DNA from: Saccostrea echinata
Lineage: Eukaryota
Reading direction: 5' to 3'
Assembly (NCBI RefSeq): GCF_033153115.1
Contig: NW_026889750.1
Span: forward strand, 14,694,001 to 14,758,000
Length of the DNA stretch: 64,000 nt
Made by a program: the position numbers and the translations under genes. Below the pieces are notes generated by a model that saw nothing but the letters and a program-made list of their open reading frames with translations, ran no database searches and had not been told where the DNA came from. Shown in pieces: positions 7,422 through 51,712 of this stretch; the stretch's first letter is position 1, and every line of letters begins with the position of its first letter.

Positions 7422-7901
7422 AGTAGTATAAGAAGCCTGGAGGGCCGGGTCAACTGAGTGCACTTTTGTCCCCCCAGATCCTGGATGGCCGGGTCAACTG
7501 AGTGCACTTTTGTCCCCCCAGATCCTGGATGGCCGGGTCAACTGAGTACACTTTTTTTTGGCCCCAGATGACCTGTTCAATCTAGTATACACCCTGGAAA
7601 AACCCAAGTAAAAAAAAAAGGGGGGGTCTACGTTTAATCTACGTTTTGTGCTGACTCAGGCCTAGGCAATACACAATCTTGGCATCGATTCAAGTATACC
7701 ATTGTGACGTCATGTGTGTCATTCACACAGAGCTCTATTTTCTGAAAACGGAAAAAACAATAACACAGTCAAAAGTGTGTAAGATGATTTATTCAAGTAA
7801 TATGTACATAATATTTACTTTTTCTTCTGGAGTTTCAGGGTCTTCTCCGTCTGGGTAGTACCAGGAAGTTTCCTCTTGTTGTTAGCCTGCTTTTGATCCT
7901 G
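7422..7901 (+). repeat. Left TIR of outer Polinton, with three ~44-bp subrepeats at ~7436-7570
   Basis: Near-perfect reverse complement of 51230-51712. Confidence 0.95.
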
Positions 7902-8483
7902 TTGACTGGTCTTATGTTGGGTAGTCTTGTTTTCTTGTGCCTTTTTCTCCAGTTTTTCGACTTCTTTGAGTAATTCCATACTGTCATCTTTACACTGATG
8001 GGCCCAATGTCCAAAATTTCCACACTTGTAGCATAAGTTCTGTTTTTTTCTGGGACAGTCCGGAGCCCAATGTCCTAATTCTTTACATATGAAACATGGG
8101 TCTGTCTGTTTACTTTTCTTGGCAGCTCCTGTATCTTCCTTTTTCTTGGCAGCTCCTGTGTTTTCACTTTTCTGGTATCCTCTCATTTTTTCTTCCATTC
8201 TAGCGACTTTAACTTCTAATCGGGACAATTTCCCACGAATCAAACAAAATTCACTGGTGTTGTACTCTTTCAGTTGAGTCAGCATGTTGACAATACCATC
8301 CAAAGTGGTGGTTAAGATGCCCATATCTTCCTTTGTCATGGGTTCAGGTATATTATAAAGTCCCAGATCAAATCCGATGGGATCCTGCGTGTCAGGCATT
8401 GTCGGTAGAGCATATCCTAACCCTTCATTGGTAGCTGGAATATAATTACGATTTTCCACGGAATTCATCATTGCCTGTGCCAT
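7815..8483 (-). CDS. Double CCHC zinc-knuckle protein with coiled coil; C-terminus encoded in the TIR
   Basis: CFICKELGHWAPDC and CYKCGNFGHWAHQC. ATG at 8483 lies downstream of a TATATAAA (~8550). Paralogous to 50996-51316. Confidence 0.85.
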   Translation of the reverse strand: MAQAMMNSVENRNYIPATNEGLGYALPTMPDTQDPIGFDLGLYNIPEPMTKEDMGILTTTLDGIVNMLTQLKEYNTSEFCLIRGKLSRLEVKVARMEEKMRGYQKSENTGAAKKKEDTGAAKKSKQTDPCFICKELGHWAPDCPRKKQNLCYKCGNFGHWAHQCKDDSMELLKEVEKLEKKAQENKTTQHKTSQQDQKQANNKRKLPGTTQTEKTLKLQKKK

Positions 8484-8737
8484 ATTTCTACGTCTGTCAA
8501 GTACCAAGTGCCCAGTAAGAATGATCCTAAATTTCCAGTTCTGGTTTATATACCCTTTTGGATTTCGTGTGCAAAAATAGGTTTGACTTACGTTTTGTAC
8601 CCTCGCGCTTAGCACCCTCTCTCGTTTTACCTACGTTTTGCTGAGTCAGTACATTGTACGTTCTGTGTACGTCTTGTATAGATAACAGGGGTATAAATAA
8701 GAAAACATTTCTAGTCAATTCTTCACAATTGATTATC

Positions 8738-9157
8738 ATGTCAACACATAAACACACTCACTCTTTAGTGTTGGAAGGGTATGATTTTTTAATGCGATGT
8801 ATCGAGAAAAATCCAGAAGCTCTACCCCCGGAGGCGGAACCAGTGTTCCAGAGAGCGACGACCATCATAGAAAATACTCAGGACTTGTGGTTACAATGCC
8901 TGGCTTTATTACATCATCCGACACTGGGGAGACTAGCCATTATACATTTCCTTTGTCAACGGATCAAAAAGACTCTACCAGAAAAAATGTACGGGATGAA
9001 AATGAGCGACTATTTAGGAAAACCTTACAGTTTCCTATGTCATCCCGAAGGGAGCAAAGTATGTCTACTCTGGAAGGAAATAGAAGCGGTAGAGAAAATA
9101 TGCATCCAATACGGGATGAAATATGTAGAAATTTCAGACATGTTAAGAAATGTGTAA
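8738..9157 (+). CDS. Hypothetical helical protein (139 aa)
   Basis: ATG ~45 nt after TATAAATA at 8692; no secure homology. Confidence 0.6.
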   Translation: MSTHKHTHSLVLEGYDFLMRCIEKNPEALPPEAEPVFQRATTIIENTQDLWLQCLALLHHPTLGRLAIIHFLCQRIKKTLPEKMYGMKMSDYLGKPYSFLCHPEGSKVCLLWKEIEAVEKICIQYGMKYVEISDMLRNV

Positions 9158-49700: not shown

Positions 49701-50790
49701 CGTCTAACAAAATGTTTAAATAAGTTCCATCTCCGCAGCCTTTATAAATGGGCTCTAAACTGAGTTTAGAGGAGGTGGACTTAAACTGATATATTTTCAG
49801 TCTATAACGAGGGGCTAACACCTGTTGTAATTTCCCCCATTCTTCGGGTCCACAAGGCTGATGAATATCACAGCCGGCTTGTTCCATGAGAGCTAGGGCT
49901 TCGTTTTTCTGGTCATTAGCTCTTACATCTCCTAATCTCATGCGTTTCCATAATTTTTCCCATTCAACTAAACTCTCTGGATTTTCCGGTTTTTGACTGT
50001 GTAACCGGGTGACTACGATGGCTCGAGCTAAACAAAATTCATCCCAAGGATTGTCGATCTGAAGGATGCATCGTTTATTCTTTTTAAAACTCTCCTTATT
50101 GACCATCAGGTGTTTGGTATTCTGTCCACCACTGCCTTCTGGATATTTGACATGAAACATGTCGAATTCCATAGACCCGTCTCCCAGTTTAAAATCTTTC
50201 TTGGATTGTTGCACGGCTTCTATTTTATTTAAAATGACGTCCTCGTTTAAATGTTTACATTGAGTAAACTCGTACCAAATGTCGGAATCCAGAGAAGGGT
50301 GGTGAATGTTCAGGCGTACATAATCGTTAGGGTTACACTGCATTTGATATTTGACATTCTGTAGCATGTCTCTAAATAATCGCCGAACAAAGCCTCTGTT
50401 TTCCTCCTCTGGAAATTCTTTAAAATTCACACTGTACACATCTTCTTTAGCTTTAAATTTTCTGGAATGCTTAGCTTGATTGAGTCTCACTTGGTAATAC
50501 TGGGAAATGGTCTTTGGTTTCGGTGGTGGTGGTGGTGAATGTGGTGGTGATGAAGACGGAGAGGGTAGTTCTTCTTCTTCTTCAGGTAGATTCCGTAAAC
50601 GTTGTAAGTGTTGAGCTCGGTTGGCTTTGGCTCTCTTTAATCTTTCCATTAATCTCGCATTTTTTTTCCTGAGAACTAATTCTCTGGTTCTCTGTCGAGA
50701 AATAATTCTTTCTAATTCTTTCTCCCGTTTTTTCCATCTCATAAGTTGTTGTGCATGTAACAATTGTTTCAAGGCACTATCAAAATTCAT
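46711..50790 (-). CDS. POLB: Protein-primed DNA polymerase B (outer), 1359 aa, intronless
   Basis: YFDFEC, AHNFKGYD, YCISDV, YEFYGCYWHGC (Vsr-like), DVCSLYP, KLFLNCLWGKF, YFDTDS. Confidence 0.97.
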   Translation of the reverse strand: MNFDSALKQLLHAQQLMRWKKREKELERIISRQRTRELVLRKKNARLMERLKRAKANRAQHLQRLRNLPEEEEELPSPSSSPPHSPPPPPKPKTISQYYQVRLNQAKHSRKFKAKEDVYSVNFKEFPEEENRGFVRRLFRDMLQNVKYQMQCNPNDYVRLNIHHPSLDSDIWYEFTQCKHLNEDVILNKIEAVQQSKKDFKLGDGSMEFDMFHVKYPEGSGGQNTKHLMVNKESFKKNKRCILQIDNPWDEFCLARAIVVTRLHSQKPENPESLVEWEKLWKRMRLGDVRANDQKNEALALMEQAGCDIHQPCGPEEWGKLQQVLAPRYRLKIYQFKSTSSKLSLEPIYKGCGDGTYLNILLDDHHYDAILSMPGVTGNQYYCDHCDVGYRNITDHRTKCPYRCSFCLTDTPCPPDGSHIQCYQCQGFFQSRTCYENHLRPHSKNTATTVCSLMGRCEHCEKWMPKRLLPHHHCGGQKQCKICKKTVDTDHQCYVQLKPEKKKKKGKETLQFYIYFDFECTQENGIHVPNLCVAHRVCQHCGHLPIEDPCPHCRHMGPRQHVFKGPDTLKHFMDWLLQPDTGNKNSALLHDEAIIIAHNFKGYDGQFILNYLVHSACMTPTVIMNGSKILSMQICGLKFIDSYNFLPFALSKMPSAFGFTELKKGYFPHFFNTEQNQNYVGPYPPAAFYNPDDMSISGRQAFYQWYEQQAGKVFDFQKEFLDYCISDVDILRRCCAQFRATLKTLVHVDPFQESITFASAANLAYRRGFMPEDTIAIIPNMGYQPARQYSAKACRWLTWMSHQSGSHIRHARNGGEVKIGSYTVDGYQEATRTIYEFYGCYWHGCPTCYPNLQTETHPHRTQFTYQELHEETLRRNTVLEEMGYSVRSIWEHDFDQQVQREGALQNYVRDLDIPDPLNPREALYGGRTNATRLYCEEGDMRYVDVCSLYPYVLKHRPFPLGHPQIITDQFQDVRTYFGLIHCRVLPPRGLYHPILPYRTGGKLLFPLCRTCAERQDSTSKHRCQHTDQERSLTGTWVTTELHKALDMGYTLERIYEVWHFPESSQDLFRSYIDTFLKIKQEASGFPPDCQTEEQKLDYIRKVIDREGIRMDLLSIEKNPVRRTIAKLFLNCLWGKFAQRLLLPKTRYLTEEEEVQQLLQDSTIDIKGLELLENKEDPDMMLVNYQEKQEFVEECPFGNVVLACFTTAHARLHLYETLQPLGNRVLYFDTDSIIYQHKEGQFNPTLGHSLGEWTDELDGDHIIKFMSGGPKNYAYLTAKGNSVCKVKGLTLNYRASNIVSPETLEKMLKKEMDEIQVSYPYKIQRTRQHEVKTVPLEKQYRIVYDKRQLMEDYNTLPYGY

Positions 50791-50995
50791 CTTGATAGAT
50801 CTGACAACAAAATGAGCTGAAAGTCGGAAGAATGCTGTATTTATAGAGTGTATGAAGTCATAATACCTAGGTAGTTCGCTGATCCAAGACTAAGTATTGA
50901 GACGTACACAGTACGTACAAAAGGGTATATAAAGCAGAGCTGGAAATTTTAGGATCAGTCTTAGTGGGCATTTGTTACTAGACAGACGTAAAAAT

Positions 50996-51316
50996 ATGGC
51001 AGAGGAAAAGTCCATGAATTCACCTCCACTCATACCAGAGACACAGGATAGTATTGAAGGAAATGAAAGAAGTTTGATATGCGATATCTTAGATCAAATG
51101 ACCAATGTAATGGAGATACTTCAACAGACTATTTGTGAGTTTAAAGAAGACATGATTACTGAGATTCGTGTGTTTAGAGGAGTGATAATGAATGAGATTG
51201 GAAATCTAGAAAAGAAAATAGAGACTAGTCAGGATCAAAAGCAGATTAACAACAAGAGGAAACTTCCTGGTACTACCCAGACGGAGAAGACCCTGAAACT
51301 CCAGAAGAAAAAGTAA
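50996..51316 (+). CDS. Coiled-coil protein, short paralog of 7815-8483 lacking the zinc knuckles
   Basis: Shared promoter, N-terminal similarity, and TIR-encoded tail NNKRKLPGTTQTEKTLKLQKKK. Confidence 0.8.
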   Translation: MAEEKSMNSPPLIPETQDSIEGNERSLICDILDQMTNVMEILQQTICEFKEDMITEIRVFRGVIMNEIGNLEKKIETSQDQKQINNKRKLPGTTQTEKTLKLQKKK

Positions 51317-51712
51317 ATATTATGTACATTTTTTACTTTGAATAAATCATCTTACACACTTTTTGACTGTGTTATTGTTTTTTCCGTTTTCAGAAAATAG
51401 AGCTCTGTGTGAATGACACACATGGCGTCACAATGGTATACTTGAATCGATGCCAAGATTGTGTATTGCCTAGGCCTGAGTCAGCACAAAACGTAGATTA
51501 AACGTAGACCCCCCTTTTTTTTTTACTTGGGTTTTTCCAGGGTGTATACTAGATTGAACAGGTCATCTGGGGCCAAAAAAAAGTGTACTCAGTTGACCCG
51601 GCCATCCAGGATCTGGGGGGACAAAAGTGCACTCAGTTGACCCGGCCATCCAGGATCTGGGGGGACAAAAGTGCACTCAGTTGACCCGGCCCTCCAGGCT
51701 TCTTATACTACT
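51230..51712 (-). repeat. Right TIR of outer Polinton
   Basis: Reverse complement of 7422-7901. Confidence 0.95.

Follow-up and report, generated by a model that had tools for sequence, protein, structure and literature searches.

A Polinton with another Polinton integrated inside it occupies positions 7422-51712 of the window analysed here, which comprises 64,000 nucleotides from the oyster Saccostrea echinata (NCBI RefSeq assembly GCF_033153115.1, contig NW_026889750.1, positions 14,694,001 to 14,758,000 of the forward strand). The outer Polinton has 22,814 bases of its own and, together with the inner Polinton (21,471 bases, positions 23032-44502), forms a composite of 44,291 bases. The ends of both elements, and the outer gene that the insertion interrupted, lie as follows (TIR, terminal inverted repeat; TSD, target-site duplication).

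7416..7421, plus: left TSD of the outer element, TAAGTA
7422..7901, plus: left TIR of the outer element, with an AGTAGT end and 44-bp internal repeats
51230..51712, minus: right TIR of the outer element
51713..51718, plus: right TSD of the outer element, TAAGTA
23026..23031, plus: left TSD of the inner element, CATTCC
23032..23221, plus: left TIR of the inner element
44314..44502, minus: right TIR of the inner element
44503..44508, plus: right TSD of the inner element, CATTCC
22930..23025, minus: 3' part of the split outer gene, with the C2H2 zinc finger
44509..45345, minus: 5' piece of the split outer gene, a basic protein; its frame enters the inner TIR and reaches a stop at 44470

Order of insertion and element ends

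The order of events is recorded in the split outer gene. Relatives of its 5' piece (n=36) carry a C2H2 motif in 15 cases, and eight of the 36 also match, in frame, the 31-codon piece beyond the insertion, which scores as zf-C2H2 in Pfam below the cut-off. The closest relative, P0001, is an uninterrupted protein of 306 amino acids (80% identical), of which residues 3-275 map to 45333-44503 and residues 274-306 map to 23031-22933. The CATTCC TSD amounts to two codons and is present once in P0001. Because P0001 spans both arms of the outer element, with an overlap of exactly these two codons, the inner element inserted into the outer element. This is the order that an earlier note on this DNA had proposed, and its claim of a split outer gene is confirmed, with the break at the inner TSD, by the in-frame relatives on either side.

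The TIRs of each element are nearly identical to each other, with 98.1% identity over 484 columns for the outer pair (~480 bp; 4 substitutions, 5 gap columns) and 98.4% over 190 columns for the inner pair (~190 bp; 2 substitutions, 1 gap), and the first 170 bp show no differences within either pair. The sequence AGTAGT is found at all four termini (7422 and 51712 in the outer element; 23032 and 44502 in the inner), and the common sequence of outer and inner TIRs is limited to the first 7 bases, with no cross-similarity past 7 nt. The chance of two perfect 6-mers at these fixed junctions is ~1.3e-7, and there are no N characters across the window. No target-site motif was evident when both target sites (TAAGTA and CATTCC) were compared. 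The two separate TIR pairs described earlier thus stand with exact coordinates, as do the two different perfect 6-bp TSDs, seen at all four junctions. Both elements have TIRs in the 100-1500 bp range of Polintons/Mavericks with (AG)n or (AGT)2 ends and TSDs in the 5-8 bp range (typically 6), and each taken separately falls within the 13-25 kb length range, which the 44,291-base composite exceeds.

Two divergent core gene sets

The core genes of the outer element, followed by those of the inner element, are listed below (MCP, major capsid protein; DJR, double jelly-roll).

14236..14739, minus: outer maturation cysteine protease (motifs; 30% to the inner protease; weak PDB match to S273R, E 0.07)
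14739..16160, minus: outer MCP (ESM Atlas feature score 0.98 to DJR-like clusters; 30% to the inner MCP)
16233..17111, minus: outer basic core-protein candidate with Q(R/K)GG-type motifs, putative role
17258..18259, minus: outer penton (minor capsid), broken by an in-frame stop that its relatives span
20503..21588, minus: outer rve integrase with chromodomain (Pfam rve E 6.7e-11; D,D,E motifs)
45391..46023, minus: outer A32-like packaging ATPase (Pfam Pox_A32 E 6e-5)
46711..50790, minus: outer pPolB, 1359 amino acids in one open frame, with a Vsr-like insert (PF03175 E 1.2e-58; TIGR00632 Vsr E 0.011; motifs)
25098..26240, plus: inner rve integrase with chromodomain (Pfam; motifs)
26276..26701, plus: inner compact penton, jelly-roll strands without an insertion domain (aligns to residues 1-49 and 217-325 of the folded relative described below)
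26698..27216, plus: inner basic core-protein candidate, putative role from its position
27219..28535, plus: inner MCP (Pfam DJR-like E 0.009; E 1e-62 to the outer MCP)
28532..28993, plus: inner maturation protease (profile match and motifs)
29086..29763, plus: inner A32-like packaging ATPase (Pfam; motifs)
30541..32144, minus: predicted exon 2 of the inner pPolB, with polymerase motifs A, B and C
32145..32299, minus: predicted 155-nt phase-1 GT-AG intron within the Vsr-like motif of the inner pPolB
32300..35243, minus: predicted exon 1 of the inner pPolB, with exonuclease motifs I-III

Genes for pPolB, integrase, ATPase, protease, MCP and penton are present once in each element. Protein identity between the outer and inner versions is 40.5% for the integrase, 26-42% by part for pPolB, 30% for each of the MCP (E 1e-62), the ATPase (E 2e-31) and the protease, and 26% for the penton, and the DNA-level match between the elements consists of a single 44-bp stretch in pPolB. 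All outer core genes lie on the minus strand; the main block of the inner element lies on the plus strand, with pPolB convergent on the minus strand. The earlier description of divergent core sets with different gene order is borne out by the sequence divergence, the place of the integrase and the orientation of pPolB, but within the block penton-core-MCP-protease the two elements agree in order. A phylogeny of pPolB, which had been suggested as a check, was built as a quick maximum-likelihood tree of the exonuclease-to-Vsr region (67 rows, being 66 of 151 candidates plus the inner piece; 18 candidates without a match to the core and 67 without motif or coverage were left out), and it places the outer and inner polymerases in separate groups.

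The family assignments vary in the type of match behind them. PF03175 is above the cut-off for all three pPolB open reading frames (ORFs), which have exonuclease and polymerase motifs, the inner enzyme requiring splicing, and a PF03175-type PolB is a characteristic of the Alpha adintovirus class (PMC8502044). Pfam gave no match to an N-terminal OTU domain on PolB at E 0.01, with no search aimed at OTU by fold or profile. The Vsr-like insert of the outer pPolB matches TIGR00632 and a phrog endonuclease (E 1.7e-4), all below the cut-off, and the Vsr-like inserts of both pPolBs match MTES_1575 at E 0.03-0.04, also below the cut-off and with no named pPolB2 reference in the tree. The mollusc pPolB2 group of Jeong et al. 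is marked by a Vsr endonuclease insert lying between the exonuclease and polymerase parts, and these matches make both enzymes putative bearers of one. PF00665 (rve) is above the cut-off in both integrases, and Pox_A32 is above it for the outer ATPase and below it for the inner one (E 0.003). The proteases (adenain/Ulp1-type) are assigned on their H, D, Q and C motifs and their position (Peptidase_C48 E 0.007; library matches weak). A DJR fold is predicted for the MCPs from the Atlas clusters (the family being named on 14-24% of their members) and the Pfam match, and a comparison of the outer MCP with PDB sequences gave no match at E 1. The single jelly-roll penton is assigned through a folded relative for the outer copy and by alignment for the inner copy.

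Condition of the two elements

The outer penton frame contains a single premature stop at 17459-17461. Both sides of this stop are matched by 19 of 21 relatives, the remaining two being short fragments, and the relatives include one from Ostrea edulis. In the fold model of a full-length relative (mean pLDDT 73.6), the N- and C-terminal strands form a jelly roll around an insertion domain, and the model resembles the pentons of mavirus (E 3.5e-7), Sputnik and adenovirus, as well as a PBCV-1 capsid chain (Z 12.2, root-mean-square deviation 3.4, 129 residues aligned). The stop falls before the last four predicted jelly-roll strands. Folded as found, the outer penton ORF has a mean pLDDT of 65, with residues 1-56 and 240-266 below 50, and this low-confidence fold agrees with, though it does not prove, the lack of half the jelly roll. 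The outer element had been called damaged, and both the split gene and the penton stop are present, but the damage is limited to these two probable virion genes: open frames are kept in the pPolB, integrase, ATPase, protease and MCP genes, and the four enzymes retain their catalytic motifs. The outer copy is therefore best described as probably defective for particles and not for the enzymes of replication and integration.

The inner pPolB, read as raw DNA, consists of two ORFs with 155 bases between them. The intervening segment has GT-AG ends and AT-rich termini, contains stops in all three frames and has a length that is not a multiple of 3; the two coding pieces are phase-compatible and, aligned to the outer pPolB, meet at its residues 838 and 840, and the 533 codons downstream form an open frame with every motif present. 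The motif at the break site was located in 58 of 150 pPolB relatives; the sequence continues across it in 45 and fails to do so in 13. In the three closest of these relatives (82, 67 and 54% identical) homology is lost at one and the same glycine, the sequence goes on with K, K or N, matching a GTAA donor read as coding sequence, and each protein ends within 14-32 residues. These three form one clade with the inner pPolB in the quick tree (SH-aLRT 100). Four more relatives that end near the intron site were not counted as support, being outside the inner clade. A second copy of the segment was found in none of the inner element, the outer arms or the flanks. Judged on these sequence comparisons, the 155-nt segment is very probably a spliceosomal intron inherited in the clade. 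If it were instead an unspliced insertion, the inner element would also be dead; the stops in all three frames, the length and the 45 of 58 relatives that run straight through the site fit such an insertion, but the GT-AG ends at the exact frame-keeping phase, the open codons downstream, and the three relatives that break at the same residue with a K/N continuation in a fully supported clade make it improbable. The inner copy is probably competent provided that the host spliceosome removes the intron, so the earlier statement that it looks intact holds for the spliced frames and fails for the raw DNA, in which pPolB is two ORFs. Given the outer penton stop and the inner pPolB intron, neither element here is 'intact' in the sense that PMC8097293 uses for vertebrate Mavericks (every core ORF open and free of introns), which is that paper's working criterion and not a definition of the family.

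How the nest arose

The nest is likely to have arisen by chance insertion of the inner element into the outer one, which served as a safe haven. The ends, TSDs, gene sets, insertion order and gene breaks are shown by the sequence, and recency, chromosomal rather than extrachromosomal nesting, a lack of targeting, splicing and the loss of virion function are parts of this reading that we infer. Two recently active Polinton families of different lineages would have coexisted in one oyster germline. The outer element would have come first, its rve integrase making a 6-bp staggered cut in repeat-rich host DNA that left the TSD TAAGTA, and the inner element would have followed by means of its own integrase, entering the outer copy in the middle of the basic zinc-finger gene and leaving the TSD CATTCC. 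The target would have been set by chance plus survival bias, which is plausible because insertion into another transposon spares host genes, and both insertions would be young because the first 170 bp are identical within each TIR pair. With assumed values of 50 copies and Polintons at 0.5% of the genome, the probability of chance nesting is 0.22; across assumed copy numbers it spans 0.01-0.98, values that are illustrative and based on assumption rather than measurement. Several points weigh against this account. Chance nesting becomes rare at low assumed values (0.01 for 10 copies and 0.1%), and both insertions appear equally young, a match in age that co-activation would account for and that chance insertion in situ does not call for. 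Dating by TIR divergence gives no resolution and cannot order the outer and inner insertions (4/479 versus 2/189; Fisher p=0.68). Finally, the penton stop is a single codon that could be an assembly error.

Nesting could alternatively have taken place outside the chromosome, with both elements active in a single nucleus, the inner element entering a free linear outer copy and the composite then being inserted once by the outer integrase or remaining mobile within the cell. The equal youth of both TIR pairs, the intact outer ends, pPolB and integrase, and the abundance of target that free replicating DNA would offer are all compatible with this, as are the small accessory gene families common to both elements, which suggest access to a common gene pool. 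Against it, the common accessory genes are only 37-40% identical, so that any exchange is old, one copy only is seen, and the composite, at 44.3 kb, is roughly double the 13-25 kb Polinton range (10.1101/2023.08.22.554363), which makes packaging unlikely; we regard this route as unlikely. The earlier note had also raised mobilisation of the 44-kb composite as a unit, which finds no support in the window, with a single copy and TIR divergences that are indistinguishable. Its other suggestion, hyperparasitism, would in the sense of targeting mean that the inner integrase prefers Polintons, by chromodomain reading or tethering, and so disables a competitor and uses its locus. The inner integrase does carry a chromodomain, the insertion did strike an outer gene that probably serves the virion, and nesting is frequent in Halocafeteria (10.64898/2026.07.28.741278), but the outer integrase also carries a chromodomain and yet the outer element sits in host repeats. 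Moreover, no common sequence is evident at the target sites, a gene hit of this kind is expected when ~10.9 of the 22.8 kb of the outer element are core coding, and a preference is not demonstrable from one event, so targeting is without support in the window and is quite improbable. Targeted and unit-mobile nesting taken together are unlikely. Misassembly of two separate elements is suggested by the repeat-rich region and by several homopolymers and a 61-nt stretch of A (36005-36065), which hint at long-read errors, but it is disfavoured because the two-codon overlap matches the staggered cut of an integrase and the elements have almost no common DNA on which a mis-join could occur. The same 6-mer at both inner junctions equals the overlap in an independent relative and the sequence has no gaps, so an assembly error of this type is very improbable.

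Outer accessory genes and histone-type stem-loops

Accessory features of the outer element, and the three genes beside the left inner TIR, are as follows.

7815..8483, minus: outer accessory gene with two CCHC zinc knuckles, 3' end within the TIR (PF00098 E 5.5e-12)
8797..9294, plus: outer PP1-binding ORF (PF10488 E 3.2e-6, above cut-off)
10255..11166, plus: outer RING-finger gene (PF13920 E 0.0025, below cut-off; resembles the RING regions of ORF 18964 and the IAP)
11189..11472, plus: four histone-mRNA-type 3' stem-loops (stems at 11194, 11268, 11346 and 11431)
11668..12162, minus: outer macrodomain-like gene (NCBIfam DarG N-terminus E 5.7e-4; phrog_335 E 2.8e-15; no Pfam match)
46066..46692, minus: outer IAP with BIR and RING (Pfam BIR E 1e-20)
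23270..23497, plus: inner small ORF homologous to outer ORF 19708-20151 (37% over 65 amino acids, E 4e-12 pairwise)
23518..23775, plus: inner PP1-binding-like ORF homologous to outer 8797-9294 (PF10488 E 0.057)
23931..24911, plus: inner CARD and two PC4 domains (Pfam E 7e-14 and 7e-15)

After the outer RING gene comes a group of stem-loops of the type found at the 3' ends of histone mRNAs. Rfam RF00032 scores 36.0 bits at 11189-11234 (gathering threshold 34) and then 33.7, 31.6 and 31.4, just below gathering, and the 16-base stem-loop pattern occurs four times in the window where 0.08 are expected. The features of RF00032 (6-bp stem, 4-nt U-rich loop, AA/C-rich 5' flank, position soon after a stop, sense strand) are all present and the folds agree, with the first stem beginning 27 nt 3' of the RING stop codon on the sense strand and a purine-rich tract, GAA(A/T)AGATACC, 3' of each stem. 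The RING gene has no A(A/T)TAAA within 150 bases, the nearest being at 11561; such a signal lies within that distance in 10 of the 12 outer genes and in 14 of all 17 genes checked. Replication-dependent histone 3' ends have a downstream element that pairs with U7, bind SLBP and are non-polyadenylated, and to our knowledge the SLBP/U7 pathway is nearly histone-only. We lean slightly towards a functional histone-type stem-loop in the RING mRNA, which would presumably use SLBP and U7; the alternative is that the stem-loops are a captured, inert fragment of a histone-gene 3' end. Term look-ups in two papers gave nothing relevant on histone stem-loops in viruses, no dedicated literature search having been made.

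Other observations concern the remaining accessory sequences. The PP1-binding-like gene is present in both elements (outer 8797-9294, inner 23518-23775; 40% over 48 amino acids, E 4e-9 pairwise), and we take PF10488 to be a GADD34/ICP34.5-like family. A further small gene family also occurs in both (19708-20151 and 18355-18900 in the outer element, 23270-23497 in the inner), with identities for the two accessory families together of 32-40%. On the plus strand, ORFs at 8738-9157 (139 amino acids) and 8797-9294 (165 amino acids) overlap in different frames. A paralogous pair at 12283-12909 and 13178-13651 (minus strand; 57% identical) shows weak similarity to Viral_Rep, the Rep endonuclease domain of single-stranded DNA viruses (Pfam E 1.6e-4 and 0.024, below cut-off). 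Mirror-image paralogues at 7815-8560 and 50918-51316 run outward into the outer TIRs, where their C-termini are common, and have a promoter stretch that is 86% similar; a longer ancestral outer TIR is possible. The heptamer TGAGTCA, presumably AP-1-like, occurs 9 times in the outer arms (7422-23031 and 44503-51712) and 0 times in the inner element, and a promoter motif block is common to 7630-7717 and 19526-19625 of the outer element. LxCxE motifs, which are short and may be due to chance, occur in the inner CARD-PC4 protein (23931-24911, plus) and an outer RING-like protein (18964-19416, minus), resembling in this respect the 'Oncoid' genes described in PMC8502044.

Cargo region of the inner element and host flanks

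Between the inner pPolB and the right TIR lies a 9-kb cargo region with a GC content of 0.32, versus 0.40 in the core. Its main features, together with a repeat just upstream of pPolB, are the following.

35395..35697, strand not assigned: HINE-like small repeat with an AC microsatellite and a terminal hairpin, just upstream of the inner pPolB (ends approximate, ~300 bp)
36999..39716, minus: predicted 6-exon gene with a Cys-rich N-terminus, four tandem-duplicated Thr/Pro/Ser-rich exons, one transmembrane helix and a tail
41930..43796, plus: predicted 4-exon gene ending in five YSPxSP heptads, like Pol II's C-terminal domain (CTD) (Pfam PF05001 E 1.2e-9)

The 6-exon gene has five introns, all GT-AG and phase 1, an open frame, a 249-bp repeat and a hydrophobic helix with a hydropathy of 1.79; it appears to have grown through tandem duplication of a 249-bp exon-intron unit, and its product may be a mucin-like membrane protein. 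No Pfam family matched it, and an Atlas search with exon 1 returned only unnamed clusters, with low recognition. An extra small exon near 38.7 kb was dropped from the model, since in the version tried the frame was broken and proper splice sites were lacking. In the 4-exon gene the heptads score above the cut-off for PF05001, the Rpb1 repeat. Its predicted splicing is supported because two named oyster gene models map onto the exons, one from Ostrea edulis onto exons 2-4 and one from Saccostrea echinata onto exons 1, 2 and 4. Perfect YSPxSP units number five here, zero in the Ostrea edulis model (which has three YTP-type repeats) and one in the Saccostrea echinata model; as the heptads are poorly kept in both, CTD mimicry as a conserved function is weakened to a lead. 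The 61-nt A run noted above lies in this region and could be a retroposed tail or an assembly artefact. The HINE-like label follows a comparison of layout with passages of PMC7492417, and a third layer of nesting is possible.

The two host flanks carry arrays of a 433-bp repeat (713-5930 and 52489-55703) that are related to each other, with identity of up to 89-90% over 1.8-3 kb. Neither the inner nor the outer element matched these flanks at E 1e-3, which rules out the HINE-like repeat as a copy of the flanking repeats. A tRNA-like match in the right flank (62554-62627, plus; Rfam 50.7 bits) may be a gene or a SINE.

Relation to known systems and implications

Both elements resemble known Polintons/Mavericks (eupolintoviruses, 'Alpha adintoviruses'; the Vsr-bearing mollusc pPolB group of Jeong et al.) in their size of 21-23 kb each, (AGT)2 TIR ends and 6-bp TSDs, and in encoding a PF03175-type pPolB, rve integrase, ATPase, protease, MCP and penton; an IAP is also among the accessory genes noted in PMC8502044. 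The points of difference are the predicted spliceosomal intron in the inner pPolB and the histone-type stem-loops after the outer RING gene. Core genes without introns are described for vertebrate Mavericks (PMC8097293) and for a nematode Maverick (10.1101/2022.07.12.499685). Nested elements have precedents in protists. Mavericks lie inside Mavericks in Trichomonas vaginalis, where nesting is expected because they fill ~40% of the genome (PMC12289875); here, by comparison, the host is an animal and TIRs and TSDs are kept in both elements. In the protist Halocafeteria seosinensis, Polinton-like viruses (PLVs) and virophages are nested in viral elements with TIRs and TSDs marked (bioRxiv 10.64898/2026.07.28.741278), whereas the present case involves two animal Polintons. 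Retrotransposons nested in PLVs (PMC12220804) and introners in dinoflagellate eupolintovirus genes (PMC12166617) have also been described; here the guest is a whole autonomous Polinton, and the pPolB intron seems to be inherited in a clade. The intron-bearing cargo beside one TIR is reminiscent of nematode Mavericks with wasp/wosp proteases and krma kinases (10.1101/2022.07.12.499685), differing in that it is 9 kb and AT-rich rather than 2-5 kb and GC-rich and in that it is predicted to encode a mucin-like membrane protein and a CTD-like protein rather than proteases and kinases.

Among the literature matches listed, supplements not covered, no report was found of one animal Polinton nested in another or of an intron in an animal pPolB, and the matches listed included no viral CTD-heptad protein. 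Neither animal nesting nor an animal pPolB intron appears in the passages of PMC8502044, PMC11131425, PMC10294476 and PMC7492417, or in those of 10.1101/2024.03.25.586562, 10.1101/2025.02.07.637071, 10.1101/2024.01.15.575659 and 10.64898/2026.10.13.758929. Given the protist precedents, the nesting alone is a tidy case of a known phenomenon. There is an even chance that the pPolB intron and the histone stem-loop are both functional, in which case oyster Polintons would be tied into host RNA processing, for which no earlier report was found among the literature matches listed.

If the stem-loop reading is correct, the mRNA of the RING ligase would be tied to S phase or oocytes through SLBP/U7 and released from polyadenylation, the three additional loops could act to titrate SLBP, and use of the histone-type 3' end would make this a viral non-histone mRNA processed by SLBP/U7. 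If the intron reading is correct, the inner lineage depends on the spliceosome for its own DNA polymerase through an intron kept in its clade, besides carrying a spliced protein with CTD-like heptads, and annotation screens that require core ORFs to lack introns and lie within 20 kb would overlook or misjudge that lineage. The nest itself would mean that one animal germline had two autonomous lineages, ~30% identical, active at almost the same time, which became physically joined, and such joining is a plausible route for the swaps of polymerase and capsid modules that 10.1101/2023.08.22.554363 and 10.64898/2026.10.13.758929 report for this group.

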